Shown here: in pieces, positions 1,956 through 55,211 of the stretch | How the letters are laid out: every line of letters begins with the position of its first letter | Position numbering within the stretch: position 1 is the first letter of the stretch | Assembly (NCBI GenBank): GCA_964447805.1 | Contig: CAYUTQ010000009.1 | Span: 2,025 to 66,024 of the forward strand | Source of the DNA: an uncultured Clostridia bacterium | GTDB lineage: Bacteria; Bacillota; Clostridia; Tissierellales; DATGTQ01 | Reading direction: 5' to 3' | DNA length: 64,000 nt | Made by a program: the position numbers and the translations under genes | Notes under the pieces: model-generated | The model's database searches: none | What the model was told of the DNA's origin: nothing | The model's input: only the letters and a program-made list of their open reading frames with translations

Positions 1956-4043
1956 ATGTTATATAAAAAAATATTAGAACTTATAAAACAATATACAGAA
2001 AAATATTTTTTAGATTTAAATAATTTGGATTATTTTACATCCACTTATATTAGTGAAAAAATGAGTATTAAAAGAAATACAGCAAGTCATTATTTAAATA
2101 AATTAAATAAAGAGGGTATATGTATAAAAACTAATACAAGACCTGTTTATTTTTTTCATAAAAAAACTTTGGAAGATAAATATGGTGAGATTAATAAGTT
2201 CGTATTTGATTCTATTGAAGAATTAGAAACTAATATACTATCAACGAATTATATTAATGATTCTTTTAAAACTTTAATAGGGTACAAAGGAAGTCTTAGA
2301 AATCAGGTAGAGCAATGTAAATCAGCAATATTATATCCTCCAAAAGGGTTACCTACTTTGTTAACTGGAGCATCAGGTACAGGAAAATCTTTTATGGCAG
2401 AAAAAATGTATGAATATGCTGTTCAAGAGGGTATTGTTGCTAAGAATGCTCCATTTATAATATTTAATTGTGCACAATATGCCAATAACCCAGAATTGAT
2501 TTCATCGAATCTTTTTGGATATGTAAAAGGAGCTTTTACAGGAGCTGATAAAGATTGTAATGGTGTTTTGGAAAGTGCAAATGGGGGATTCTTATTTTTA
2601 GATGAAGCTCATAGATTAAATGCAGAAGGACAGGAAAAGTTATTTATTTTAATGGATAAAGGTGTTTATAGAAGAATGGGAGAATCAGATGGTTATCATA
2701 AAGTAGATGTAAGACTTATTTTTGCTACTACAGAAAATGTAAAAGATGTATTTTTAGATACATTTATTAGAAGAATACCATTAATAATTAACATTCCAAC
2801 ACTAGAAGAAAGAGGAAAAATAGAAAAAAAAGAGTGTATCTATAAATTTTTTCATGAAGAATCTAAGAAAATAGGCAAAAATATATTGGTTAGTCCCCAT
2901 GTAGTCCAAGTATTGTTAGAACATGAGTTTAATGGAAATTTTGGAGAATTAAAAAATGTTATAAAGAGTATGTGTGCTTTAGCCTTTATAAGGCAAAGGA
3001 AAAAAGAAAGTATAAAAATAAGTTTAACTTTACTTCCTTTTAATGTATTTGTAACGTTAATTAAAAATAATAATATAGAAACTTTAACGGAAGATGATTA
3101 TATATTATTTGAATTAGATAAAAAAATGCCAACTATTCAAAAAAAAGTTTCAGTAGAAGATAATGTAATACCTAATATGTATAAAAAAATTGTATATCAA
3201 TTAAAAAAATATGAAAATAGTGAAATTGAATTTAATAAATTAAATGAAAATATAGCTTGTATAATGTATGATTGTTTTACTAAAATAGTTTTTTTTAGGA
3301 ATGAATATTTTAATGAAAATAAGCTTAGATTAAAATATATTAAAACCTCAATAGCTAAAGTTTTTAATTTTTTCAAAAAAAATTATGGAACTTGTTTTAC
3401 TAGAAATGATGTAATAGCATTTTCTTATTATATTTATTATAGAAGTTATATAGATTTTGATAATAGTATGAAGAAATCAGAAAAGGAAATAACAGATATT
3501 TTAGTATCTAAGGAATTTATAGATGAATATAAAATGGCTGAAAGAATAATAAATGTTTTAAATAGAAACTTTGATATTTTATTAACTTTTGAAGATAAAA
3601 TAATAATAATTTTTTATTTAAAAAATATAAAGATAAAACGTGTATCAAATAGGGTAAAATGTATGATTATAACACATGGCTATTCTACTGCCAGTAGTTT
3701 AGCTAATATTGGGAACCATAGATATAGAAGAATTTTATTTGAAGCTTTTGATATGCCTTTAAATGTATCTAAAGATAAAATAATAGAAGAAATTAAAAAC
3801 TATATAGATAATGTTAATATTTCCAATGGTTTAATAGTTTTGGTAGATATATGTCCAATATCAGAAGTTTATAATGAAATATTGAAATTCACAACAAAAC
3901 CAGTAGCTATAATGAATAATGTATCTACTCAAATGGTTTTAGATGTGGGTAATATGATAAATAAAGGTTTAGATATGAAGACTATAGTAGAAAATATAGA
4001 TAGAAATGAAGATAATAAAAAGATATTAATTGCACATTCATAA
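1956..4043 (+). CDS. Sigma-54-dependent transcriptional activator, LevR-like (HTH, AAA+, PRD-like region, EIIA-Man-like domain)
   Basis: Walker A GASGTGKSF, the GAFTGA loop (GYVKGAFTGADKD), Walker B FLFLDEAHRL, and a C-terminal MIITHGYSTASSLANIG...LIVLVDI segment typical of PTS EIIA(Man) modules. RBS AAGAGGTG precedes the ATG. Confidence 0.85.
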   Translation: MLYKKILELIKQYTEKYFLDLNNLDYFTSTYISEKMSIKRNTASHYLNKLNKEGICIKTNTRPVYFFHKKTLEDKYGEINKFVFDSIEELETNILSTNYINDSFKTLIGYKGSLRNQVEQCKSAILYPPKGLPTLLTGASGTGKSFMAEKMYEYAVQEGIVAKNAPFIIFNCAQYANNPELISSNLFGYVKGAFTGADKDCNGVLESANGGFLFLDEAHRLNAEGQEKLFILMDKGVYRRMGESDGYHKVDVRLIFATTENVKDVFLDTFIRRIPLIINIPTLEERGKIEKKECIYKFFHEESKKIGKNILVSPHVVQVLLEHEFNGNFGELKNVIKSMCALAFIRQRKKESIKISLTLLPFNVFVTLIKNNNIETLTEDDYILFELDKKMPTIQKKVSVEDNVIPNMYKKIVYQLKKYENSEIEFNKLNENIACIMYDCFTKIVFFRNEYFNENKLRLKYIKTSIAKVFNFFKKNYGTCFTRNDVIAFSYYIYYRSYIDFDNSMKKSEKEITDILVSKEFIDEYKMAERIINVLNRNFDILLTFEDKIIIIFYLKNIKIKRVSNRVKCMIITHGYSTASSLANIGNHRYRRILFEAFDMPLNVSKDKIIEEIKNYIDNVNISNGLIVLVDICPISEVYNEILKFTTKPVAIMNNVSTQMVLDVGNMINKGLDMKTIVENIDRNEDNKKILIAHS

Positions 4044-7279: not shown

Positions 7280-9638
7280 GTTGTTAGTCTACCTATAAGG
7301 AATTGAAACAGGTGGGTCTATAAATAATACATCTGCATCATACATGTTGTTAGTCTACCTATAAGGAATTGAAACCTGTAAAGTGCCAACTTGCTCCTGT
7401 AGAAGGATTCTTGTTGTTAGTCTACCTATAAGGAATTGAAACACCCACTTCTGGCTCGATTATAGCCCTTTCTTTCTGTTGTTAGTCTACCTATAAGGAA
7501 TTGAAACTACATTAGGTCAGTATTTGCAAGCCATCTCCTTAGTTGTTAGTCTACCTATAAGGAATTGAAACTTGATAATATAACGTCTGCATCTTCCATT
7601 TCTAATTCGTTGTTAGTCTACCTATAAGGAATTGAAACTAAATTCTCCTGCATCTAGTTCATTCAGTTTTGTTTTGTTGTTAGTCTACCTATAAGGAATT
7701 GAAACATAAAAAAGATGAAACTTTTATTGAGCTAACAATTGATAGTTGTTAGTCTACCTATAAGGAATTGAAACGGTATCTAATGAAAAAATGCAATATT
7801 CCTATTAGTAACGGTTGTTAGTCTACCTATAAGGAATTGAAACTACCGTACGGTACGGTATATGTCAAGTCTTTTATTTAGTTGTTAGTCTACCTATAAG
7901 GAATTGAAACACCACTTCCACTTGTGCGTCTGTGTTTCCGGCCATTGTTGTTAGTCTACCTATAAGGAATTGAAACTTTTTTTCTTGTGTTCTTCTGTTA
8001 GTTCCTCGAAAGGTTGTTAGTCTACCTATAAGGAATTGAAACTTTTTTTCTTGTGTTCTTCTGTTAGTTCCTCGAAAGGTTGTTAGTCTACCTATAAGGA
8101 ATTGAAACCCCCAATTTTTAGCACTACTTACTATCCCATTTATTGAACGTTGTTAGTCTACCTATAAGGAATTGAAACCATTTTGTACCCCGTCTTCCCT
8201 TGCATCGGGGAAGTTCGTTGTTAGTCTACCTATAAGGAATTGAAACACATTTTAACTACCTCCTTGATTTTTTGTTTCTTTTTCGTTGTTAGTCTACCTA
8301 TAAGGAATTGAAACGAATTCAACAATCATATTACAGGACCGTTCCATATGTTGTTAGTCTACCTATAAGGAATTGAAACAGGATATGGACATAGATGCAA
8401 TACAGAAGGCAGCAGATGGTTGTTAGTCTACCTATAAGGAATTGAAACAAACATACGAGAAACTGCAAATTAAAGGTATTCTAAGTTGTTAGTCTACCTA
8501 TAAGGAATTGAAACTTTCTTTTTGCTGTTCGGCTATTCGTTTTTCTTTTGTTGTTAGTCTACCTATAAGGAATTGAAACAAGAGTGCTAAACCCCTATAG
8601 TCTTTTTGTTGTCTTAGGTTGTTAGTCTACCTATAAGGAATTGAAACAATCCATGTACTACTGCATTTGTAACTAGTTGATCTGTTGTTAGTCTACCTAT
8701 AAGGAATTGAAACTCAATTACATCAAACAATGCAATCATCCTAGGATTGTTGTTAGTCTACCTATAAGGAATTGAAACGCGTTTAATTCTGTTAGTGCAT
8801 CTTTAGTTTCTTGTAGGTTGTTAGTCTACCTATAAGGAATTGAAACTCAATTACATCAAACAATGCAATCATCCTAGGATTGTTGTTAGTCTACCTATAA
8901 GGAATTGAAACACATTTTAATTCCTCCTTGATTATGTAAGCCCCTCGTTGTTAGTCTACCTATAAGGAATTGAAACGAAGAGACTGGAAAAGTATACGTT
9001 GGAAATTTGAGGTTGTTAGTCTACCTATAAGGAATTGAAACTCAAAAACAAGGTAGTCATCTTTGTATGAGGTCATGGTTGTTAGTCTACCTATAAGGAA
9101 TTGAAACGTATTTGCAACGACGTAACTTATTATGTTGTTTTCTGTTGTTAGTCTACCTATAAGGAATTGAAACAAAGCAAAGAAACAAGGGAAACTATTG
9201 AATTCTTTTTGTTGTTAGTCTACCTATAAGGAATTGAAACCTTTCCAACCTCTTTTATTTTGCCCTCTACAAAAAGTTGTTAGTCTACCTATAAGGAATT
9301 GAAACACAAATTCTTGAGCTTCTATAACTGCTGTTCTCATAGTTGTTAGTCTACCTATAAGGAATTGAAACTTTCCTGATGGCAAATTCCTTACTGGTAG
9401 AGATTTTGGTTGTTAGTCTACCTATAAGGAATTGAAACTAAAGTCTGCTGTTGGCTTACCTTGTTGCTCAAACTCGTTGTTAGTCTACCTATAAGGAATT
9501 GAAACAGGGAGAAGAAAAGTGATTCTGTCGCTCAAGTAGATGGTTGTTAGTCTACCTATAAGGAATTGAAACCTATATGTGGCATATAAACCTTATCTAG
9601 CAGTGTTAGTTGTTAGTCTACCTATAAGGAATTGAAAT
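7280..9638 (+). CRISPR. CRISPR array of 36 repeats and 35 spacers, with no cas genes in the window
   Basis: The 30-nt repeat is GTTGTTAGTCTACCTATAAGGAATTGAAAC and spacers are 34-40 nt. Repeats 1-35 look identical; the last repeat (9609..9638) ends GAAAT. The ATTGAAAC 3' end is typical of Cas6-processed type I-B/III repeats. That end, the leader promoter and the degenerate distal repeat all point to + strand transcription. Confidence 0.97.
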
Positions 9639-42149: not shown

Positions 42150-42360
42150 AGAAATATTTCTGCGGTGTGCGCTATCCCTATAATTCAACCGACATTGAAT
42201 ATACGGGAGTCTGTGTTCAGCAATGTATGATAGGCCTCTTTTATAAAGGAAATCAAAAATTGTTGACAGGGCACCCACCTTGTGAGAGGCGGGTGTGAAT
42301 TAGTTGGGAATACGGCATCGCGGAATAAAAAACCCTTTGGTTAGATCCAAGGGGTTTTTT
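42150..42360 (+). ncRNA. ssrS: Structured GC-rich RNA, best read as 6S RNA (ends approximate)
   Basis: This is the only GC-rich non-coding island in the window. The 5' UUCUGCGGUG pairs with the 3' CAUCGCGGAA, extended by CUAUCCC/GGGAAUA and UAAUUCA/UGAAUUA, giving a long interrupted closing helix. An internal imperfect helix (ACAUUG/CAAUGU, GCAAU/AUUGU, CUGU/ACAG) and a 3'-side hairpin (CACCCACC/GGCGGGUG) are also present. The end sequences resemble the E. coli 6S termini (AUUUCUCUGAGAUG...GGCAUCUCGGAGAUUC). An intrinsic terminator lies at 42327..42360. Confidence 0.5.
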
Positions 42361-44475: not shown

Positions 44476-45363
44476 ATGAAGAAAGTTAAAATAATTTGTA
44501 ATCCGTCATCAGGTAGACAAATAATTCAAAGAAAAATAGATTATATTTGTAAGATGTTAATTGATTATGGATATACTGTGAGTAAATTTTTAACTGAGAA
44601 AAAAAATGATGCTATGAAAGAAACAATAAGATGTTGCCATGAAGATTGGGATATTATAATAGCTTGTGGTGGGGATGGTACTATTAATGAAATAGCCGAA
44701 GGTATAGTAAAAGGTGGCAGAAAAATTCCAGTGGCTATTTTAGCTGCAGGAACTGTAAATGACTTTGCTAATTATATGGATTTGCCTAAAAATAGTAAAG
44801 AATTTTTTGAAATGATTGAACAAGGCAATACTATGGATGTAGATTTAGGAAAGGTTAATGATGAGTATTTTGTAAATGTGGCTGCTAGTGGAATTTTAAC
44901 TAATGTAGGTTATCAGGTGCAGCCAGAAATAAAAGCTGTATTGGGAAGAATGGCATATTATTTAGAAGGACTTAGAGAAATTCCAAAACAAAAATTTGAG
45001 CCTATTAAAATGAAATTTGAATGTAGAGAATATGTGAGAGAAGAAGATATATTGTTATTTTTAGTATCAAATACTTCATCAATAGGAGGCTTTAGAAAAC
45101 TTGCTCCTAAGGCTAATGTATCTGATGGTTATTTAGATAGTATAATAATTAAAGAATCTGAAATACAAGAGCTAATTACAATATTTGTAAAAATATTTAG
45201 GGGTGAACATATAAATCATCCAAATGTAGAGTATTTCAAAACGAAAAAAATGCACGTATATACAAATGAAGATGTTCCTATAGATATTGATGGGGAATAT
45301 GGTGGGAAATTACCTGCAGTTTTTGAAGTGATTCCAAAAAGTTTTAAGATATTTATAAAATAA
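44476..45363 (+). CDS. Diacylglycerol/lipid kinase (YegS/DagK family)
   Basis: The IIACGGDGTINE motif is present, and the fold order is that of DAGK_cat-type lipid kinases. Confidence 0.85.
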   Translation: MKKVKIICNPSSGRQIIQRKIDYICKMLIDYGYTVSKFLTEKKNDAMKETIRCCHEDWDIIIACGGDGTINEIAEGIVKGGRKIPVAILAAGTVNDFANYMDLPKNSKEFFEMIEQGNTMDVDLGKVNDEYFVNVAASGILTNVGYQVQPEIKAVLGRMAYYLEGLREIPKQKFEPIKMKFECREYVREEDILLFLVSNTSSIGGFRKLAPKANVSDGYLDSIIIKESEIQELITIFVKIFRGEHINHPNVEYFKTKKMHVYTNEDVPIDIDGEYGGKLPAVFEVIPKSFKIFIK

Positions 45364-45364
45364 T

Positions 45365-45390
45365 AAAAAAGCAGATTAATCTGCTTTTTT
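45365..45390. terminator. Bidirectional terminator (lipid kinase / bactofilin convergent)
   Basis: AAAAAAGCAGAT pairs with ATCTGCTTTTTT. Confidence 0.7.
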
Positions 45391-45768
45391 ATTATTTTTA
45401 TTTTCTTTTTTGGGATTGTTATTTATTTTTTTCATTTTACAGCTTCCTTCAAATAAAGCATCTTCATTAATAACAAAATTTGAGACTTCTACATCTCCAA
45501 TTAGTTTTCCTGAAGAAAGTAAAACTAATTGTTCTTTGGTGATTATATTGCCATTGACACTGCCTCCAATTGTGATATTTGTACAAGATATATCTCCTTT
45601 TATTTTTCCGTTTTCTCCCAATACTATATCTCCTGTAGAGTCAATATTGCCTTCTATAATGCCATCAATTCTTATATTACCTTTACCTTTCATTGATCCC
45701 GTTATTTCCATATTTTCACCTATAATAGAATCTAGGTGACCTGTATTTTGCTTTGTTTTACCAAACAA
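45376..45768 (-). CDS. Bactofilin (polymer-forming cytoskeletal protein, DUF583)
   Basis: Repetitive beta-helix pattern (ITGSMKGKGNIRIDGIIEGNIDSTGDIVLGENGKIKGDISC...) with a Lys/Asn-rich tail. Confidence 0.8.
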   Translation of the reverse strand: MFGKTKQNTGHLDSIIGENMEITGSMKGKGNIRIDGIIEGNIDSTGDIVLGENGKIKGDISCTNITIGGSVNGNIITKEQLVLLSSGKLIGDVEVSNFVINEDALFEGSCKMKKINNNPKKENKNNKKAD

Positions 45769-45794
45769 ATATTTTCACCCTTTCTTTGCATATA

Positions 45795-46691
45795 TTATTT
45801 TAAAAGACTTAATGGATCAAGTAGTTTACCACTTTTATGTATTTCAAAATGTAAATGGCTACCAGTGCTTCTTCCTGTAGAACCCATCTCTGCAATAGAT
45901 TGTCCTTTTTCTACATTGTCTCCTGTATTTACAAGTAATTTTCTATTGTGTGCATATAGAGTTTTATAGCTATTGTTATGATTAATAATAACAGTTTTTC
46001 CATAGCCGTTTTTGTAGCCAGAAAAGATTACTGTTCCTTTTCCAGCAGCTTTTATTGTTGTTCCAGATGAATTGGCAATATCTACACCTTTATGAAATTG
46101 CATATTTTGTCCAAAGGGACTTTTTCTATAGCCAAAAGGAGAGGAAAGTCTTCCTTCTGTAGGGTTTAAATCAGGTGTTTTTTCTAAATCTTCAAATTTG
46201 TTTTCCACATCTACAATAAAAGTTTCTAATTCTTTTTCTTTGTTTTCCAATACTTGTTTTAATTGTTCTATTTCATCTTCAGGACTGAGATTTTTTGATT
46301 TTGTTTTTTTATGTAATTGTTTACTTCTTGATGGAGATTTGACTCCTGTCATTCGTTCTAGTTGTCTTTGCAATTGGTCTATTTCTGAAAGCTTGTTTTC
46401 AATTTCTGTATTTTTTTCGTCTAGAATTTTAGTTGTAGACTTTAAATTTGATATTTTTTCATCTTTATTTTTATTTTCTTTTTCAAGATTAGAAATTTCT
46501 TTTTCTTTCTTATCAAATTCGTTTCTTAGCTTTTGATAAGAGGAGTAAATATTATTTGTAAATAACAATGCAAATGAAATAAGGCAAACTAGAGAAATAA
46601 TTATAGCTTTTGGTAACCATTTGGGTATTGATAGTCTTTTTACTTTTTTGACATCTGGAACGATGACTATTGATATACGCTTGTCTTTCAT
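45795..46691 (-). CDS. M23-family (LytM) peptidase with an N-terminal TM segment and a coiled coil
   Basis: HKGVDIA...GSTGRSTGSHLHFEIH are the M23 zinc ligands. A long Glu/Lys-rich coiled-coil segment is also present. Confidence 0.85.
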   Translation of the reverse strand: MKDKRISIVIVPDVKKVKRLSIPKWLPKAIIISLVCLISFALLFTNNIYSSYQKLRNEFDKKEKEISNLEKENKNKDEKISNLKSTTKILDEKNTEIENKLSEIDQLQRQLERMTGVKSPSRSKQLHKKTKSKNLSPEDEIEQLKQVLENKEKELETFIVDVENKFEDLEKTPDLNPTEGRLSSPFGYRKSPFGQNMQFHKGVDIANSSGTTIKAAGKGTVIFSGYKNGYGKTVIINHNNSYKTLYAHNRKLLVNTGDNVEKGQSIAEMGSTGRSTGSHLHFEIHKSGKLLDPLSLLK

Positions 46692-46936: not shown

Positions 46937-47407
46937 TTGAAAGTTAAAAGTAAATGTGAATATGTAGTTAATATAGAAAAATATTTGAGATGGACTGATT
47001 ATGCAATAAGACGTAAAGGTAGAGAAATTTTATGGGATTTTAATATTACAGGACCTCAATTTATTGCATTACAAATACTTATAAATGATGGTGAATTGAC
47101 TGTAGGTGAGCTGAGTCAAAAGATGTCTTTAGCATGTAGTACAATAACGGATTTAGTAGATAGAATGGAGAAAAGTGGACTAGTAGTTAGGAAAAAAGAT
47201 GAAAAAGATAAGAGAATAGTTAGAATTGAAGTTTTACCAGTTGGTTATGAGGTAGTTAACAAAGTAGTAGAAAAAAGAAGAAAGTTTTTAGCAGGTAAAT
47301 TAGAAAATTTTAAAGAAGAGGAAATGAAATTTTTAAGTGAAAGTTTAGAGGCACTATATATTGCTATAAAAAAAGAGAATGAAGAGTGGAAAAATTCAGG
47401 CAATTGA
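46937..47407 (+). CDS. MarR-family transcriptional regulator
   Basis: Winged-HTH segment LTVGELSQKMSLACSTITDLVDRMEKSGLVVRKKDEKDKRIVRIEV. The start is probably the TTG at 46937, 6 nt after GGAGGAG; the track start at 46922 overlaps that RBS. Confidence 0.8.
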   Translation: MKVKSKCEYVVNIEKYLRWTDYAIRRKGREILWDFNITGPQFIALQILINDGELTVGELSQKMSLACSTITDLVDRMEKSGLVVRKKDEKDKRIVRIEVLPVGYEVVNKVVEKRRKFLAGKLENFKEEEMKFLSESLEALYIAIKKENEEWKNSGN

Positions 47408-47487
47408 GATATAATATATGACAAAGGTATAATATTGTAAAATATAATATTTATTACATAAAGTTTTAAAAAAGGGGAAGAATTATT

Positions 47488-50400
47488 ATGAAGGTGATTG
47501 ACAACAGGTATAAATTAGATAATCTTCTAGAAGAAGATATAGAAGGTAATTCATATTTAGTGACTGATTTGTGGAATACAGACAAAATATGGAAATTGAA
47601 ATTTTATGATTTTGAGAACCAAGGGGATATTATTGATTACTTTATTGATGAATTTGTATTTATTTCAAAAATAAAACATGAAAATTTATTGTCAAGTGAA
47701 GAATTTAATATTGTTAAATCTATAGATGGGAAAAGATTAAGATTGCATCAATACTATTCAATTACAGAATATGAGGATAGTCCTACTTTGGAAGAAGAAA
47801 TTGAAAACATGTCTATGGAAGAAAAGATTTTTGTAGTATTACAGCTTTTGATTGTAGTGGATTTTTTACATTTCAGGGGAATAATATATAAACATTTGAC
47901 TCCTACGAATATATTTATTACAAAAGATCATATAGTAAAATTACGAGATTTGGCTAATATATCTACACAAATTATTGAAAAAAATTATGATACTGTTGAT
48001 AGATATTTTATTGCACCAGAAGTATTATTAAAAACAGAGGATACAAATAAAAAGGTTGATTATTATTCACTTAGTATGTTATTGAAATATATTTTTGAAG
48101 GTAAATTTTATGAAAAATCAAAGTACTCATTTAATTTTAATAATGATTGTAAATTAGATGAGCAGAAGAAATTATTCTTAAAAGAATTATATACAAAACT
48201 TCGTATGAATAATCAAATTAATAATTTACAGCAAAGTATTAAAGATATGATTGATATATTTAATATTGATTATGAATATGATATTTTTAAAGAAAGAGGA
48301 ACTCTTAATTTTAAGACTAAAATTGTAGGTAGAGATAAAGAATTGAAAAAGATATTTAATATAAGAGATCAGTTTCAAAAAAATAATTATGCTAATAAAT
48401 TATTTTTAATAAGTGGAGAAGAAGGAATAGGGAAAACTAGATTATTGAGAGAGGTTGAATATAGATTAAAATTTAGAAGTAAGGTAGTATATAACTTAGC
48501 AGTGGAAGAAGAAAATAGAATTGATTCAAAATTATTTTGTAAGATTTTAAAACAGACAATAAAAGATGCTCCTAAAAATTTAATTAATAGATATGGTAGT
48601 GAGTTAGTGAAGTTAATACCAGAGTTAAGCTATGGAGGTGGAATAACTCCTTCTTCAAATTTATCAGAAGATAAAGAAAAATTTAAACTCTATTATATAG
48701 TAACAAATTACATAAAAGAATTAGCTATGATAAATCCCATATATATACTTATTGATGATATTCATAATATTGATGAGTGGAGTATGGGGCTTATTGAATA
48801 TATGATAAATAAATTAGGGGCTTGTCCTATATTAATTATTGCGACATGTGACCAGAATAAAGGGAAAAAAGAGAATTTTAAAGTTTTAAAAAAATGGATG
48901 ACTTCAGATAAAACACAATCTGTTATATTATCTAATTTTGGTCTTCAGGAAGTAAGTGAAATGGTTCAACATATACTAGGGATAAGTTATAAGCCATTAA
49001 GTTTTTCTACTGTGTTATTAGATGAAAGTTCAGGAAATCCTGGTTATATTGAGTTTATTATAAAAAGTTTATTTGCAGTAAAAGAATTGTATATAGATAA
49101 GAATGGATTTTGGTATGTAAAGACTGAAAGATATGCTGATTTGTATTATCCTGCTAGTTTTGATGAGGGATTAAAAAATCAAATTAATACGTTAGATGCT
49201 GAACATAAAAAAGTGGTACAAGTAATATCTATTTTTAATTATCCAGTAACAAAAGATATTTTGTTAAAGTTAATTGATATAGGCAAGAAAGAATTAGAAC
49301 AAATTATTAATAAATTGCTTACTATGAAATTATTAGATGAAAGACTAGGAGATTGGGGATATAGTTATAAAATTTATAATCGACATCTTAAGAAAATTAT
49401 ATATTCTGAGATACCAGAAAAAGAAAGGGTAAAGCTTCATAGAAAAACAGCTGAAATTTTTAGAACAGATTATACAAATAATAGTGTAAGTATTATGGAA
49501 GAATTGACTTATCATCTCATTATGTCTGGGCAAGTAGATGTGGCAGTAGATTGTCTAATTAATCAAGCCGCAAAACTTGAGACTCTTTTGAGCTCTCAGG
49601 CATTATGTTTACTAGAAAAGGCTTATGAACTTTTAGAGGATAAGGAAGTAAGTTATAAAAAATTAGAATTAGCTGAAAGCATAGGTAAACATTATACTTA
49701 TAAAGGGGAATATGATAAAGCACTAGATATGTATAATAAAATATTAAAAGATGCAGAAAAAATTCAGAATATTAAATACATTGTTAATGCTTATAATTCT
49801 ATTGGAGATATATATATTCGCAGAGGTCAAGATGAATTAGCAAAACAATATGCTTTTAAAGGACAAAAAACTTCTGAAAAGATTAAATATATAGATGGCA
49901 TATTAGATGCAATGATTATAAATATTAAAGCAGAAATGAGTAGAAGTAATTTAAAAATAGCAGATAAAACTATCAATAAAGCGATAGAAATAGCCAATAA
50001 TGAAGGAAAAGATACATATTTAGGTATTTTATATAATCTTTTAGGTCTTGTATATTATTATACAGGAAATATATATGAAGCTAAAAAAACATATGAAAAA
50101 AGTATAAAAGCTTTTCAAGGAAGTGAAAATTCTGTAGAAATTACAAAAGCTATGAATAATATGGCAAATATTTATTCGGATCAACAGGGGAATATTGAAA
50201 AGGCAATGAAATATTATACTGAAGGTTTAAAGATATGCCATAAATATGGTTATATAGAAGTTGAAAAGACTTTTTTATTTAATATTGGTATAGTATATAA
50301 GAAAAATTGTGATTATGAAAATGCTATAAATTATATAGAAAAGGCTAAAGAATTGTCAATAGGATTAGAAGATGGTATGTTAGCTATGTTTTCTATTATT

Positions 50401-52875
50401 ACTTTAGGACAAATTTATTTAGATATGGGAAATTATGAAAAAGCTTATAGTTATTATATTGATATTGTTGAAGAAGGTCAAAATAAAAATTTACAAGATA
50501 TAGAGGTTATAGGAAATTATTATAATTTTTTAGGTAGATTTAATTTTAAATTTGGACAATGGGAAGAGGCCTTATATTATACAGAAAAAACCATAGAAAC
50601 TTGTAAGGAATTTAGAACAGAAGAGTATTTAGATGCAAGTAGTAGATTAATTTTAATTGACTATTTTTATAAGAATATATATGATAAAGATTCCATGGAG
50701 AAAGTTTTAGAGAAATATATGGATAGGGCAGCATATTATGATATAAGAAAAAGATTTTTGCAATTTGCAGCTATAAGTTATCTAGAAAAAGATTATGAGT
50801 ATGTTGAAGAATTGCTAATAAGAGATAAAAAGCTTAAAGAAAAGTTTAGTGTAGAAGCTATTGAATTTGCTAAAGAGGCATTTTTATATATTATAGATGA
50901 TGAAATAGGTATAGAAAACTGTAAAAAAGAAAATATAGGAATTATTGAAGAAAAGTTTAAAGGAAATAACAAACAAGAATTACAGTTATATGCCAATATT
51001 GTATTGTGCCAGAAATTTTATAAGAATGAAAATTTCTCAGAATCTTTAAATTGTTGTTTAGAAACACTTGATATTATGTATAGATTAATTGCAAAAGTTC
51101 CATCTAAAAAACTTCAAATAAGTTTTATTAAAAAATATAAAGGGGATTTAATTAAAAAAAGGATAGAGAATATAATTAATAAAATGTTTTCTAAAAAATT
51201 AAATTGTATTTATTTAGATGATTTAGTAGAAGATGAAAAAATAGAAAAATACTTTGATTTTAGTGATTTATTCGGGTTAATTGATGATGAAGAATTTGAT
51301 AAGATAAAAACAGCTAGTTATACGGATTTTTCTATATCAAGAGAAATTAATAATATAGAGGATTTAATAAAAAGTTTTACTACGGATTATCTATATAATT
51401 TTCAACTAATAATTAAATATTTAGGTAGAGAGACCTATGCCCAAGAAGGTTTTATACTAATAAGGGATGAAAATACAAATGAATATAATCCAGTGGCTAT
51501 TTTAAATAATAAAGATAATGTTAATGAATCAATTCTTTGGATGGCAAATAAAAATGAAAAAGGTCTCTTAATTAAAAATTCGTTTCAAAATGTAGAAGAT
51601 AAGATGCTTGATGTATTATTACCTTCTAATATGAAAGCTTTAATATGTGTTCCAATTATTAGACATGAAAGCAATAATGAAGACAACAATACAAATAGAA
51701 GGAAAAAAACTTATCAAAAAGATAAAAAAATCATAGGGTATATTTATCTTGAAACTAACAAATTATTTAATAGATTTGATGAAGAAAGACTTGAATTAGT
51801 AAATACAGTAGCTTTTTTAACTTTTATAAATATTGAAAATTATAATTTAAAGATATTGTCTACTATAGATAAAATGACAGGAGTTTTTACTAGAAAGTAT
51901 TTTGATATACTATTTAATGAGTTTTTAATTTCGACTAAAAGGAATGGTGAAAAATTTTCTTTATTAATGTTAGATATAGATAAGTTTAAGAATATAAATG
52001 ATATTTATGGTCATAGAAAAGGTGATGAAATATTATCTAAAATAGGAAGAATACTTAATGAAAATACAAGAAAGGATGATATAGTAGCTAGATATGGTGG
52101 AGAAGAATTTATTGTTGTACTTAAAGATATAAATGAAAAAGATGCAAAAGCTATTGCTGAAAAGCTTAGGGAAAAAGTAGAAAAATTAAACATTCCTAAT
52201 GGTGATAGCCTTTTAACAATAAGTATGGGATTAGTTATGTATCCTAGACATGGTCAATTTAAAGAGGAATTAATTGAAAAAGCAGATCAAGCATTATATT
52301 GTGCAAAAGAAAGAGGACGCAATAGAGTGATAACATGGCATTCTAATATAGTAAGTACTGTTAATAGAGTAGATAGATTAGCTGGAATAATGTCGGGAAA
52401 CATGGTAAAAGATCAAAGAAATGTTTTAGCTATGATGGATATGATAAATTTAATAAGGATAAATACGACTAAAGAAGAAAAAATATGTGAGTTTTTAGGA
52501 AGATTAATTGAAATGTTAGATAGTGAATATGGCATTTTATTTATTGTAGATAAATTAGGTATTCATAATAAAGGGTATGCACGTAAACGATTTGAAACAA
52601 AATGGGTGAAAATGCCTAAAGTGAATGTAAATGTAATAAGTAGAGTGGTAAAAACAGGGAAGGGAGAATTTTTAATAGATTGGGAAACAGTAAGCAATGT
52701 TGATATAATATCAGGAATTCCAAATTGGCGATCTATAATTGCTATTCCTTTAGTATATGAAGGTAGAATAAAGGGTTTAGTTTATCTTTCTGTTTCTATG
52801 AAAGAAAAAGAATTTGATTATAATTGTTATAATCTTGCCAATGCATTATGTGGAATTTTTTCAGCTGTGATTTAA
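47488..52875 (+). CDS. Giant signalling protein: degenerate Hanks-type kinase domain, AAA_16/STAND NTPase, TPR-like repeats, GAF, GGDEF (active-site GGEEF plus RxxD I-site), GAF
   Basis: The kinase-like subdomains have YKHLTPTN in place of HRDLKPxN. Walker A is GEEGIGKTRLL and Walker B is IYILIDDIH. The GGDEF core is DIDKFKNINDIYGHRKGDEIL...RKDDIVARYGGEEFIVV. A terminator hairpin lies over the stop codon. Confidence 0.85.
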   Translation: MKVIDNRYKLDNLLEEDIEGNSYLVTDLWNTDKIWKLKFYDFENQGDIIDYFIDEFVFISKIKHENLLSSEEFNIVKSIDGKRLRLHQYYSITEYEDSPTLEEEIENMSMEEKIFVVLQLLIVVDFLHFRGIIYKHLTPTNIFITKDHIVKLRDLANISTQIIEKNYDTVDRYFIAPEVLLKTEDTNKKVDYYSLSMLLKYIFEGKFYEKSKYSFNFNNDCKLDEQKKLFLKELYTKLRMNNQINNLQQSIKDMIDIFNIDYEYDIFKERGTLNFKTKIVGRDKELKKIFNIRDQFQKNNYANKLFLISGEEGIGKTRLLREVEYRLKFRSKVVYNLAVEEENRIDSKLFCKILKQTIKDAPKNLINRYGSELVKLIPELSYGGGITPSSNLSEDKEKFKLYYIVTNYIKELAMINPIYILIDDIHNIDEWSMGLIEYMINKLGACPILIIATCDQNKGKKENFKVLKKWMTSDKTQSVILSNFGLQEVSEMVQHILGISYKPLSFSTVLLDESSGNPGYIEFIIKSLFAVKELYIDKNGFWYVKTERYADLYYPASFDEGLKNQINTLDAEHKKVVQVISIFNYPVTKDILLKLIDIGKKELEQIINKLLTMKLLDERLGDWGYSYKIYNRHLKKIIYSEIPEKERVKLHRKTAEIFRTDYTNNSVSIMEELTYHLIMSGQVDVAVDCLINQAAKLETLLSSQALCLLEKAYELLEDKEVSYKKLELAESIGKHYTYKGEYDKALDMYNKILKDAEKIQNIKYIVNAYNSIGDIYIRRGQDELAKQYAFKGQKTSEKIKYIDGILDAMIINIKAEMSRSNLKIADKTINKAIEIANNEGKDTYLGILYNLLGLVYYYTGNIYEAKKTYEKSIKAFQGSENSVEITKAMNNMANIYSDQQGNIEKAMKYYTEGLKICHKYGYIEVEKTFLFNIGIVYKKNCDYENAINYIEKAKELSIGLEDGMLAMFSIITLGQIYLDMGNYEKAYSYYIDIVEEGQNKNLQDIEVIGNYYNFLGRFNFKFGQWEEALYYTEKTIETCKEFRTEEYLDASSRLILIDYFYKNIYDKDSMEKVLEKYMDRAAYYDIRKRFLQFAAISYLEKDYEYVEELLIRDKKLKEKFSVEAIEFAKEAFLYIIDDEIGIENCKKENIGIIEEKFKGNNKQELQLYANIVLCQKFYKNENFSESLNCCLETLDIMYRLIAKVPSKKLQISFIKKYKGDLIKKRIENIINKMFSKKLNCIYLDDLVEDEKIEKYFDFSDLFGLIDDEEFDKIKTASYTDFSISREINNIEDLIKSFTTDYLYNFQLIIKYLGRETYAQEGFILIRDENTNEYNPVAILNNKDNVNESILWMANKNEKGLLIKNSFQNVEDKMLDVLLPSNMKALICVPIIRHESNNEDNNTNRRKKTYQKDKKIIGYIYLETNKLFNRFDEERLELVNTVAFLTFINIENYNLKILSTIDKMTGVFTRKYFDILFNEFLISTKRNGEKFSLLMLDIDKFKNINDIYGHRKGDEILSKIGRILNENTRKDDIVARYGGEEFIVVLKDINEKDAKAIAEKLREKVEKLNIPNGDSLLTISMGLVMYPRHGQFKEELIEKADQALYCAKERGRNRVITWHSNIVSTVNRVDRLAGIMSGNMVKDQRNVLAMMDMINLIRINTTKEEKICEFLGRLIEMLDSEYGILFIVDKLGIHNKGYARKRFETKWVKMPKVNVNVISRVVKTGKGEFLIDWETVSNVDIISGIPNWRSIIAIPLVYEGRIKGLVYLSVSMKEKEFDYNCYNLANALCGIFSAVI

Positions 52876-53011
52876 ATCGCAGCTTTTATTTGTTTATATT
52901 ATGAAAAATATGATATAATATTCTTAATGTTAATGATTAGATTTTTTATGATATAATAATGAGTAAGTAATTGTTGAGAAGAGGAAATTATATAGGATTT
53001 GGTGATAACAA

Positions 53012-53578
53012 ATGAGAGCCTTTGTTGGTTTAGAATTTGATGAGAATCTTAAATCAAAACTTAAATATATACAAGAAAATATAAAGCAATACTCAAAAAA
53101 AGGTAATTGGATTCATGAAGATAATTTTCATATGACCTTAAAGTTTTTGGGTGAAATTAATAATGAATATGTAAATAATATAGAAAGTATTATCGAAAAT
53201 GTTTCTTGTAAATATTCACCAGTAAAATTAAATTTAAATAAATTAGGTTATTTTAACAATAAGAACGGTGAATTAAGAGTACTTTGGTTAGGAATCTCAG
53301 GGGAGGTAGAAAAACTTACTCAAATTTACAATTATATAGATGAGGAATTATCAAAACTAGGAATTGATAAAGAAAAGCGTGAATTTAATCCTCATATTAC
53401 CCTTGGTAGAAGAGTAATTTTAAATAAACCTTTTTACGAAGTTAATAATTTACTTGAAGAAAATTTGGAGTACAATTTTGTATTAAAGAACATATCTTTG
53501 TTTAAAAGTAAAAAAATCATGAAAAAGCGAGTATATACTCCAATAAAATCAAATAGTTTTAAAAAAACCACAGTTTAA
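53012..53578 (+). CDS. thpR: RNA 2',3'-cyclic phosphodiesterase (2H family, ThpR/LigT)
   Basis: Two HxT motifs are present (HMTLKFLG and HITLGR) and the length is typical of the family. Confidence 0.8.
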   Translation: MRAFVGLEFDENLKSKLKYIQENIKQYSKKGNWIHEDNFHMTLKFLGEINNEYVNNIESIIENVSCKYSPVKLNLNKLGYFNNKNGELRVLWLGISGEVEKLTQIYNYIDEELSKLGIDKEKREFNPHITLGRRVILNKPFYEVNNLLEENLEYNFVLKNISLFKSKKIMKKRVYTPIKSNSFKKTTV

Positions 53579-53594
53579 TAAACTGTGGTTTTTT
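53562..53594 (+). terminator. Rho-independent terminator after thpR
   Basis: AAAAACCACAGTT pairs with AACTGTGGTTTTTT. It overlaps the stop codon. Confidence 0.75.
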
Positions 53595-53628
53595 ATACGC
53601 TTTAGTATAATAACGTAACATATAGTTA

Positions 53629-53651
53629 AAAGTTTTATAGTATAAAACTTT
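53629..53651. promoter_or_regulatory. Perfect palindrome in the hut leader (candidate operator or RNA hairpin)
   Basis: AAAGTTTTATA-g-TATAAAACTTT has 11-nt exact arms. It lies between a TATAAT box (53606..53611) and the hutH RBS. Confidence 0.5.
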
Positions 53652-53684
53652 AAATTATATGTACAAAATAGGAGGAATGTAAAA

Positions 53685-55211
53685 GTGAATAAAGTTATTG
53701 TTGATGGGAATGGATTAACTATTGAGGATTTTATAAAAGTTGTAAGAAAAAATTATAAAGTAGAGTTGTCTAAAAAGGCTATTGAAAGAGTTGAAAGATC
53801 TAGAAAATTAGTAGAAAAATTTGTAGAAGAAGAAAAAGTTGTTTATGGCATTACAACAGGTTTTGGAAAGTTTAGTGATGTACTTATTAATAAAGATGAA
53901 ACTAAAGAACTACAAAAAAATCTTATTATTAGTCATTCTTGTGGAGTAGGAAATGCTTTTGATGAAGAAACAGTAAGGGGAATTATGTTGCTTAGGATAA
54001 ATGCATTAGCTAAAGGTTTTTCTGGGATTCGATATTCAACTTTAAATACATTGGTGGAAATGCTTAATAAAGGTGTGCATCCAGTTATACCTGAAAAAGG
54101 TTCTTTAGGTGCTAGTGGAGATTTAGCTCCTTTAGCTCATATGGTATTAGTTATGATGGGAGAAGGGGAAGCTTTTTATAAGGGAGAAAGATTATCAGGT
54201 AAGGAAGCTATGAATTGTGGGGGAATACCGATAGTAGAGCTTACTTCTAAAGAAGGATTAGCTCTTATCAATGGTACTCAAGTAATGACATCTATAGGAG
54301 CATTAACATTATATGATAGTATTAAATTAAATAAGACTGCTGATATTATATCAGCTTTAACTGTAGAGGCCTTAAATGGTATAGTAAATGCTTATGATAA
54401 AAAAGTTCATCAAGTACGTCCTCATAAAGGGCAAATAGAGACAGCAGACAATTTACTTAAATTATTAGAAAATAGTAATATGATTACAACCCAAGGGGAT
54501 ATAAGAGTTCAAGATGCCTATTCATTAAGATGTATTCCTCAAGTTCATGGAGCAAGTAAAGATGCCATTGATTATGTGGCAGAAAAAGTAAATATTGAAA
54601 TTAACTCAGCTACAGACAATCCTTTGATTTTTGAAGAAGAAGAAAAGGTTATATCAGGAGGAAACTTTCATGGTGAACCTATGGCTTTAAGTTTTGATTT
54701 TTTAGGGATTAGTTTAGCAGAATTAGCGAATATATCTGAAAGAAGAATTGAAAGATTAGTAAATCCTACACTAAGTGGTTTACCAGCATTTCTTGTAAAA
54801 AATGGGGGCTTAAATTCAGGATTTATGATAGTACAATATTCAGCAGCTTCATTAGTTTCAGAAAATAAGGTATTAGCTCATCCTGCTAGTGTAGATTCTA
54901 TACCATCTTCAGCAAATCAAGAAGATCATGTTTCTATGGGTACTATTGCTGCGAGAAAGGCTAGAAATATTTTAGATAATACTAGGAAAGTTTTAGCAAT
55001 GGAGTTGTTGACTGCATGCCAAGGAATAGATTTACGAGGTAATAATGGATTAGGTAAAGGAACAGGAATAGCTTACAGTATAGTTAGAAAACATGTTCCT
55101 ATTATTGAAAAGGATACAATAATGTATAAAGAAATAAATAAATGTGAAGAGATTATTAAATCAAATATTATTTTAGAGAAAATAGAAAGGGAATTAGGTA
55201 AATTATATTAA
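53685..55211 (+). CDS. hutH: Histidine ammonia-lyase
   Basis: The MIO-forming GASGDLAPLAH motif and a 508-aa HAL-like sequence throughout. AGGAGG is followed 9 nt later by the GTG start. Confidence 0.95.
   Translation: MNKVIVDGNGLTIEDFIKVVRKNYKVELSKKAIERVERSRKLVEKFVEEEKVVYGITTGFGKFSDVLINKDETKELQKNLIISHSCGVGNAFDEETVRGIMLLRINALAKGFSGIRYSTLNTLVEMLNKGVHPVIPEKGSLGASGDLAPLAHMVLVMMGEGEAFYKGERLSGKEAMNCGGIPIVELTSKEGLALINGTQVMTSIGALTLYDSIKLNKTADIISALTVEALNGIVNAYDKKVHQVRPHKGQIETADNLLKLLENSNMITTQGDIRVQDAYSLRCIPQVHGASKDAIDYVAEKVNIEINSATDNPLIFEEEEKVISGGNFHGEPMALSFDFLGISLAELANISERRIERLVNPTLSGLPAFLVKNGGLNSGFMIVQYSAASLVSENKVLAHPASVDSIPSSANQEDHVSMGTIAARKARNILDNTRKVLAMELLTACQGIDLRGNNGLGKGTGIAYSIVRKHVPIIEKDTIMYKEINKCEEIIKSNIILEKIERELGKLY

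Follow-up and report, generated by a model that had tools for sequence, protein, structure and literature searches.

The window analyzed here, a 64-kb stretch (64,000 nucleotides) of contig CAYUTQ010000009.1 from an uncultured Clostridia bacterium, encodes a 1795-aa protein that is probably a STAND-type switch carrying a dead kinase and driving the synthesis of cyclic di-GMP (c-di-GMP). This overall picture combines sequence profiles, structure models and analogy with characterized systems. The protein is the product of an uninterrupted open reading frame (ORF) at 47488..52875 on the + strand that begins with ATG; coordinates are those of the whole window and residue numbers those of this product. 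An earlier note, made from the letters without database searches, had described a 1795-aa ORF with a marR gene 80 nt upstream on the same strand, and both the ORF and the end of marR (47407) were located.

The earlier note had read kinase-like, AAA_16/STAND, TPR-like, GAF-like, GGDEF and second GAF-like domains in this order. Pfam, together with AlphaFold2 (AF2) models and Foldseek, reproduced every one of these calls, and all motif strings that had been quoted were found at the implied positions. The nucleotide-binding oligomerization domain (NOD) comprises a nucleotide-binding domain (NBD), a helical domain (HD) and a winged-helix domain (WHD). The domains are arranged as follows:

47488..48273, + strand: pseudokinase domain, residues 1-262 (Pfam Pkinase, PDB alignments, AF2/Foldseek)
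48325..49407, + strand: STAND NOD, residues 280-640, with NBD, HD bearing a GxP motif, and WHD (AAA_16, Foldseek)
49417..51297, + strand: arm and TPR-type helical-repeat sensor, residues ~644-1270 (TPR profiles; arm helices 644-716 in the AF2 model)
51355..51864, + strand: first GAF domain (GAF-A), residues ~1290-1432, plus linker helix 1432-1459 (partial Pfam GAF, AF2, Foldseek)
51862..52335, + strand: GGDEF diguanylate-cyclase domain, residues 1459-1616 (Pfam GGDEF, TIGR00254)
52402..52872, + strand: C-terminal GAF domain (GAF-B), residues ~1639-1795 (Pfam GAF_2, AF2)

Pfam Pkinase matches residues 30-255 with 53.4 bits (cut-off 31.7), and AAA_16 matches residues 279-451 with 45.5 bits, above its gathering score. 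TPR profiles fall at residues ~820-1060, led by TPR_12 (102 bits) and TPR_MalT (52.9 bits) and including TPR_1, TPR_2 and TPR_8. The Pfam GAF match to residues 1372-1443 is partial and marginal (23.6 bits against a cut-off of 22.4). The GGDEF domain scores 158.7 bits with Pfam (residues 1459-1613) and 165 bits with NCBIfam TIGR00254. The second GAF-like module, which the earlier note had placed at the end of the protein, is found both as a GAF_2 match (residues 1668-1790, profile positions 9-130 of 136, 32.7 bits against a cut-off of 28.6) and as an AF2 fold. Two AF2 models, each built from a 43-row family alignment, cover residues 1-720 (pLDDT 85.7, pTM 0.80) and residues 1240-1795 (pLDDT 82.2). 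At the level of profiles and predicted structures, we regard the domain folds and their order as established, the two GAF folds being probable. Mean pairwise identity within the family is highest in the GGDEF domain (52.4 %), followed by GAF-B (40 %), the NOD (34.2 %) and the pseudokinase (33.8 %); the arm/TPR region is the least conserved part, with 28.0 % in its TPR portion.

Judged by sequence, the 5.4-kb open frame cannot be chance, because stop codons are common in such AT-rich DNA (G+C of the ORF region ~25 %) and more than 100 homologs align over 100 % of its length. A word-indexed search returned ~108 full-length clusters (~1750-1830 aa) that cover 100 % of the query at 25-55 % identity. 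An exhaustive search with residues 1-720 yielded 248 representative clusters at E <= 1e-30, nearly all of them 1750-1820 aa long. Full-length members, all ~1650-1900 aa, number 103 among the 90 %-identity clusters and 105 more among the 50 %-identity representatives. The architecture is therefore not a one-off, and these sequences define a large Clostridia family of ~1790 aa; a survey of its distribution, proposed in the earlier note, gave more than 200 full-length relatives with this architecture in Clostridia. Named members come from Tissierella, Anaerosalibacter, 'Clostridium sp. Cult2', Senegalia, Proteiniborus, Fusibacter, Acetoanaerobium, Clostridium tagluense and C. estertheticum, and carry the RefSeq label 'diguanylate cyclase'. 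Those with a lineage or higher-rank label (Acetoanaerobium, metagenome-assembled genomes of Tissierellia/Tissierellales, Clostridium species) belong to the class Clostridia.

The earlier note had also asked whether the ORF might be an assembly chimera of separate genes. An unusually long gene on a metagenome-derived contig invites the suspicion that assembly or annotation has fused neighbors. The identical protein nevertheless occurs on independent contigs, one of them in a 'fossil metagenome' assembly (ENA ERZ925048), and more than 200 homologs share its length and domain order, including members on finished chromosomes (Proteiniborus, Clostridium tagluense and C. estertheticum have finished genomes with a member). 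The chance that the ORF is a chimera is vanishingly small, and we consider this explanation refuted.

The N-terminal domain has a bilobal kinase fold, and Foldseek matched the first ~270 residues of the AF2 model to PknB, Stk1, JNK and GCN2. Its kinase-like motifs are EEDIEGNS (residues 15-22), IWKLKF (34-39), YKHLTPTN (134-141), DLA (154-156) and IAPE (175-178). EEDIEGNS stands in place of the Gly-rich loop GxGxxG, where outgroup proteins carry GxGxMG. In alignments with solved kinases and with outgroup kinases that are intact, Y134-K-H136 falls on H-R-D, so that the catalytic Asp is replaced by His136, and Thr138 falls on the catalytic-loop Lys. The earlier note's prediction of a dead kinase holds, with no intact catalytic Asp or Lys after alignment to solved and outgroup kinases and no Gly-rich loop. 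The protein does keep the β3 Lys (K38), the αC Glu (E55), the catalytic-loop Asn (N141), the DFG Asp (D154) and the APE Glu (E178). We conclude that this pseudokinase is predicted to be dead for phosphotransfer, though not necessarily for nucleotide binding.

The same loss extends across the family. Residues were counted in a MAFFT alignment of 103 full-length homologs and in the further 105 full-length representatives from the 50 %-identity library. The canonical HRDxKxxN motif occurs in none of these 208 proteins, and the Gly-rich loop pattern in none of the 103 that were aligned. The HRD-Asp column of the alignment contains mainly Tyr (36), His (22), Phe (15), Leu (9), Glu (6) and Ser (4), with Asp in only 3 of 103. 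By these alignments, the kinase catalytic residues are lost family-wide. Retention of the remaining positions is uneven: the β3 Lys persists in 77 of 103 members, the αC Glu in 25, the catalytic-loop Asn in 59 and the DFG Asp in 84. The pseudokinase is nevertheless not decaying and appears to be constrained as strongly as the NOD, because its 33.8 % identity matches that of the NOD and exceeds that of the TPR region. Its near-invariant residues (Y23, G131, Y134, E178, D191, Y193 and S194) are structural-core positions. The three proteins with Asp at the HRD-Asp column (P0094, P0096 and P0098, with YGD, YND and YSD) are distant members, for example from Clostridium estertheticum, and have neither the β3 Lys nor the catalytic-loop Lys. 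Their Asp may have reverted, or one sub-branch may have degenerated in another way.

The residues kept in the window protein (K38, E55, N141 and D154) and the purifying selection on the domain would also fit an atypical active enzyme, with a relocated catalytic residue or another kind of nucleotide transfer as in SelO, and pseudokinases with unexpected chemistry are known (PMC10211241, PMC12599244). We judge this very improbable. The catalytic Asp is missing in 100 of 103 members, the αC Glu and the Gly-rich loop show the counts given above, and K38, N141 and D154 occur together in only 35 of 103. No alternative invariant polar residue stands out, and the near-invariant ones belong to the structural core.

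The NOD follows the pseudokinase with the motifs VGRDKEL (residues 280-286), Walker A GEEGIGKT (310-317) and Walker B ILIDDIH (420-426). The AF2 model of residues 1-720 speaks for the STAND-type NTPase proposed earlier, with Apaf-1 and the TPR-STAND protein PH0952 as its best matches. These top PDB matches, over residues ~280-720, are Apaf-1 (3sfz and 1z6t, ADP-bound; E = 5e-11) and PH0952 (6mfv; E = 2e-9); they span 450-660 columns, and kinases rank after them. Walker A does not vary at G313, G315 and K316, and D423 of the Walker B hhhhD pattern is present in 98 of the 103 aligned members. The helical-domain GxP motif (G516-N517-P518) is invariant or near-invariant. Two His residues, H651 (101 of 103) and H676 (94 of 103), are near-invariant; they lie within the winged-helix region or behind it and are candidates for the ADP-contacting WHD His. 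The NOD seems competent for nucleotide binding and, given the Walker B and sensor-I changes described below, is possibly a poor hydrolyzer.

The C-terminal part of the protein carries the predicted output. The earlier note had described a canonical GGEEF active site with an RKDD I-site five residues upstream, and both are intact, at residues 1537-1541 and 1528-1531 (RxxD), respectively. GGEEF is kept in 99 of the 103 aligned members and in 101 of the 105 further representatives. R1528 and D1531 of the I-site are invariant in alignments of 35 and 43 members, and the exact RxxD pattern is found in 79 of the 105 further representatives. The other GGDEF motif residues (D1461, T1464, R1469, D1496, D1498, N1504, D1513 and K1607) are invariant as well. 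The domain superposes on solved GGDEF domains with a TM-score of ~0.9. The GAF-GGDEF module of the earlier note also agrees with the C-terminal model, whose best Foldseek match is the GAF-GGDEF cyclase Dcsbis (4zmu; 335 columns, large root-mean-square deviation), with phytochrome-linked cyclases (5llw) next. In the AF2 model, a 28-residue helix (1432-1459) joins GAF-A directly to the GGDEF domain, an arrangement like that of coiled-coil-regulated cyclases. GAF-B covers a near full-length GAF_2 profile and is modeled as a β-sheet with helices at a pLDDT mostly above 85, with W1732, S1749 and E1775 invariant. Sequence searches for PDB relatives of GAF-A or GAF-B found nothing usable. The GGDEF domain is most simply predicted to be an active cyclase with product inhibition.

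Some GGDEF proteins are receptors that bind through the I-site, and the invariant RxxD would suit a protein in which the GGDEF domain is mainly a receptor for c-di-GMP or GTP and the whole acts as an effector or scaffold that reads c-di-GMP. Receptor-only domains usually have degenerate active sites, whereas here GGEEF is nearly universal, all other conserved motif residues are invariant, and both the profile score (158.7 bits) and the superposition (TM ~0.9) are those of a domain close to active cyclases. A pure receptor role is thus very unlikely.

To be active, GGDEF domains must dimerize so that two GTP molecules meet, as in PleD and WspR. STAND-driven assembly would therefore be a natural on-switch for the cyclase. 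STAND proteins rest as ADP-bound closed monomers, and an inducer on the repeat sensor leads to ATP binding, multimerization and activation of the output (PMC6468293, PMC4381067). By analogy, the NOD of the window protein would hold ADP at rest in a closed form that is stabilized by the arm and the TPR sensor. A ligand or partner protein would bind the TPR region, and possibly a GAF domain, and so allow ADP/ATP exchange and self-association of the NOD. Self-association would pair two GAF-helix-GGDEF units into a GTP-loaded catalytic GGDEF dimer that produces c-di-GMP, and binding of c-di-GMP to the RxxD I-site would limit the output. The two GAF domains may provide additional small-molecule inputs. 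ATP binding may outweigh hydrolysis, giving a switch with slow reset, because a sensor-I-type Arg is lost and the second acidic residue of Walker B is often lost (see below). The pseudokinase, without phosphotransfer, could be a lid or scaffold for the NOD, a docking site for partners, or a nucleotide sensor. It is most likely a regulatory or scaffolding surface, and its role is where the model has the fewest constraints.

Several points weigh against this picture. The second acidic residue of Walker B is Asn in 59 of the 103 aligned members, although it is Asp in the window protein. Outgroup proteins have an Arg in a 'TYR' motif after strand β4, which we take to be sensor I on the basis of the sequence alignment and general knowledge of AAA+ proteins. 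In the family this column contains Asn in 47, Asp in 23, Glu in 11 and Arg in only 4 of 103 members, and the window protein has D455 (residues 452-456, nt ~48841..48855). Because the sensor-I-type Arg is missing and Walker B is so often D-N, the NOD may not cycle like MalT or Apaf-1. The joint presence of K38, N141 and D154 in only 35 members comes with no coupled retention of K38 and D154 across the family (Fisher p = 0.39), so that a conserved nucleotide-binding role of the pseudokinase is unsupported. GAF-A is identified by the marginal partial profile match (23.6 bits) and an α/β pattern in the AF2 model. The coupling of NOD to GGDEF is a conjecture, as the GGDEF domain lies ~800 residues from the NOD, beyond the sensor; MalT likewise has its output placed after the sensor. 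The two GAF domains alone could supply the regulation, with the NOD secondary.

A rival reading makes the NOD, like the kinase, a relic: the cyclase would be GAF-regulated and dimerize through GAF-helix-GGDEF, and the N-terminal part would be an interaction scaffold without nucleotide switching. Such a GAF-helix-GGDEF unit is self-sufficient in the proteins that match the C-terminal model best in structure, Dcsbis and the phytochrome cyclases, and the GGDEF domain and GAF-B are the most conserved parts of the protein. The lost sensor-I-type Arg and the Asn in Walker B point the same way. A structural relic would not, however, need the invariant Walker A residues, nor D423, the GxP motif and His651, all of which are kept. 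Conservation of the NOD equals that of GAF-A, and STAND activation in MalT needs ATP binding rather than fast hydrolysis (PMC6468293). We therefore consider a relic NOD unlikely and continue to favor a STAND switch that acts on the cyclase.

A more speculative extension, to which we give little credence, makes the pseudokinase a receiver of Ser/Thr phosphosignaling. It would serve as a docking site or phospho-acceptor for a genuine Hanks kinase of the cell, or, as a mimic, capture a kinase ligand. By gating a STAND oligomer with slow reset, it would place c-di-GMP output under a kinase pathway, and the strongly conserved MarR protein encoded upstream would be a dedicated co-sensor or a c-di-GMP-responsive regulator of the pair. 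If true, this would be a previously undescribed direct link between Hanks kinases, STAND assembly and c-di-GMP in Gram-positive anaerobes.

The nearest relatives outside the family are Pkinase-AAA_16-TPR proteins of 1220-1280 aa, whose Pkinase domains score 160-170 bits. Their kinase motifs are GxGxMG, VALK, H-x-D-x-K-P-x-N with the Asp kept, and DFG or DLG, and two of them (P0231 and P0215) have a canonical HRD. Their NODs carry hhhhDD and 'TYR', and the linker between kinase and NOD is homologous to that of the family. They resemble the PknK-type STAND Ser/Thr kinases, such as PknK of M. tuberculosis, and the family shares with this type the N-terminal Hanks fold, the homologous linker, the AAA_16 NOD and the TPR region in the same order. 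PknK-type relatives differ in keeping GxGxxG, VALK, the catalytic Asp and DFG/DLG, and they end after the TPR region at ~1250 aa, whereas the family has a dead kinase, no 'TYR' Arg and an additional GAF-GGDEF-GAF module of ~520 aa. In the simplest history, a PknK-like STAND kinase seems to have given up phosphotransfer, let its ATPase motifs relax and gained the C-terminal GAF-GGDEF-GAF module.

The closest described kind of protein, compared by its published description, is the CP1 group of cytosolic (pseudo)kinases, which are like the family in the fusion of a kinase-like domain to an ATPase. CP1 proteins are ~40 % pseudokinases, are always fused to a COG3899/AAA_16-type ATPase and often bear GAF/PAS modules (bioRxiv 10.1101/2025.01.12.632604; PMC12599244). 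They occur in cyanobacteria and proteobacteria with FhlA-type or PAS additions and are experimentally uncharacterized (same sources). The main texts of the CP1 atlas and review (10.1101/2025.01.12.632604; PMC12599244) make no mention of GGDEF, a diguanylate cyclase or a Clostridia family. The 'DLHK' pseudokinase family, which has several C-terminal domains, was rejected as a relative; it is helicase-linked and proteobacterial.

MalT and PH0952 supply the mechanistic model (PMC6468293, PMC4381067) and share the NOD (NBD-HD-WHD), the arm and the helical-repeat sensor. They have a DNA-binding output and no kinase-like domain, whereas the NTPase motifs of the family are partly degenerate. Class III cyclase-AAA_16-TPR proteins, found among the distant matches (P0109 and P0113), and TIGR03903 (TOMM system kinase/cyclase fusion protein) likewise combine a second-messenger cyclase with the same kind of NOD and TPR region. 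In these fusions the cyclase is of the adenylate/guanylate type (PF00211) and N-terminal to the NOD, whereas here the GGDEF domain is far C-terminal and flanked by GAF domains. The NOD part of TIGR03903 aligns to residues 274-696 with 69 bits, and membership was rejected at the cut-off of 705 bits. Dcsbis (PA2771 of P. aeruginosa) and PadC resemble the C-terminal part in their GAF-type sensor, long helix and canonical GGDEF domain with I-site, but are 340-680 aa long; NOD, TPR and kinase-like domains are missing, and so is a second GAF domain behind the GGDEF domain.

Searches of the open-access literature found nothing on an architecture that joins AAA_16/COG3899/STAND to GGDEF, or a pseudokinase to a diguanylate cyclase. 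This agrees, within open-access text, with the earlier statement that no characterized protein has the full architecture. The individual modules are familiar, and the family is populous, uncharacterized and already visible to automatic annotation. If the favored reading is true, GGDEF dimerization, the activity-limiting step, would be under the control of a STAND-type nucleotide or oligomerization switch, in place of a receiver, PAS or membrane sensor. Diguanylate cyclases have mostly been studied in Proteobacteria, and to our knowledge the input signals of c-di-GMP in Clostridia are largely unknown. The family also provides a clean natural bacterial pseudokinase, in which catalysis is lost in essentially every member, the domain is conserved like the ATPase, and a sister group with active kinases is identifiable. 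It could be a tractable system for a question that recent surveys of bacterial pseudokinases flag as open, namely what pseudokinases do. The practical value is modest, as the members are environmental anaerobes with familiar modules.

The gene is flanked by a regulator gene and a terminator-like hairpin:

46937..47407, + strand: gene of a MarR-family winged-helix regulator (Pfam MarR; 156 aa from TTG 46937)
47408..47487, + strand: marR-cyclase spacer of 80 nt, without a terminator-like hairpin and with a GGGGA ribosome-binding site
47404..47433, + strand: sigma-70-like match TTGAGA-18-TATAAT, a consensus match only, in AT-rich DNA
52863..52884, + strand: terminator-like hairpin of 9 pairs followed by a T-run, overlapping the stop codon of the large ORF
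53012..53578: thpR, encoding an RNA 2',3'-cyclic phosphodiesterase (TIGR02258, 144 bits)

The hairpin and thpR stand as the earlier note had them, with thpR after the terminator. The MarR product matches Pfam PF01047 over the full profile (57.2 bits). Its start is most likely TTG 46937, where a GGAGGA ribosome-binding site lies 6 nt upstream and the gene callers chose the resulting 156-aa product; a longer mechanical reading starts at TTG 46922.

We compared eight loci: the window, Tissierella sp. P1 (L001), L082-L086, and Acetoanaerobium noterae (L087). A marR ortholog lies upstream on the same strand in six of them and is absent from the C. tagluense and Acetoanaerobium loci. The gap between marR and the cyclase gene is 80 nt in the window, 42 nt in Anaerosalibacter, 46 nt in Clostridium sp. 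Cult2 and 15 nt in Fusibacter, and marR is just upstream in Tissierella sp. P1. Because the gaps are short and contain no intervening terminator, marR and the cyclase gene are probably co-transcribed, and MarR would control the pair. In Proteiniborus sp. MB09-C3 (L083), a MATE/MurJ-type transporter gene (2388..3809) and then a hairpin lie between marR and the cyclase gene, which has its own 191-nt upstream region; here MarR may have the efflux gene as its primary target.

MarR proteins are 47-67 % identical across these genomes, compared with 27-44 % for their cyclases relative to the window protein. All six MarR orthologs (window, L001, L082, L083, L085 and L086) share the recognition-helix segment LACSTITDL without a single change. 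This conservation suggests a conserved operator or ligand. The earlier note had proposed that MarR binds within 47408..47487. This is doubtful, as orthologous loci have only 15-46 nt there, and given the probable co-transcription an operator upstream of marR is more likely than one in the spacer. Palindromes in 47408..47487 are short and unremarkable for AT-rich DNA, and no operator was identified among them; the 160 nt upstream of marR in the six loci share only AT-rich, background-like k-mers.

The wider neighborhood was compared between the window (44476..46691 and 53012..55211) and L081-L087 and L001. Across several genera and families the order is yegS/DAGK (a lipid kinase gene), bactofilin and an M23 peptidase (opposite strand), marR, the cyclase gene, lacI, thpR, hutH and hutU. 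A lacI gene follows the cyclase gene in four other loci (Anaerosalibacter, Proteiniborus, Fusibacter and Clostridium sp. Cult2) and is absent in the window. The Acetoanaerobium noterae record (L087, NZ_CP154629.1, 'plasmid pTPELB2') is 2.63 Mb long, a chromosome-sized record with 4 annotated features that is filed among plasmids, and the gene of its 1755-aa family member follows immediately after yegS/DAGK, with no marR.

This synteny bears on a likeness to antiviral STAND proteins that the earlier note had drawn. In an Avs-like defense protein, the same domains would sense a phage component and fire a nucleotide signal; the layout of effector, NOD and repeat sensor resembles defense STANDs, PADLOC gives weak matches to defense-associated kinase domains (mad6 with 43 bits, and PD-T4-6), and a CRISPR array lies elsewhere in the window. 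The PADLOC matches, however, reach no further than the generic kinase fold, and none of the Avs or STAND defense models was matched. No phage match was found, and the sole match in the plasmid collection is the chromosome-sized record above. The surroundings are syntenic housekeeping genes (yegS, marR, thpR, hutH and hutU) across genera and families, unlike variable defense islands, and the CRISPR array is ~38 kb distant. An antiviral role is highly improbable, and the analogy finds no support in the PADLOC, phage-match and plasmid-collection searches. Defense-system and mobile-element readings were both rejected on the generic kinase PADLOC matches, the lack of a phage match and the single, chromosome-sized match in the plasmid collection.

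No c-di-GMP riboswitch was found within the window. The CRISPR array (7280..9638, - strand) consists of 36 direct repeats, each 30 nt long and matching Rfam CRISPR-DR2 with 43 bits. A 6S RNA (SsrS) gene lies at 42154..42330 on the + strand (Rfam RF00013, 86 bits, full-length match). Nearly all 2-kb bins of the window show a positive GC skew, which accumulates to 8.6, and most of the inspected genes of the 44-55 kb stretch are on the + strand; together these are consistent with the + strand being the leading strand.

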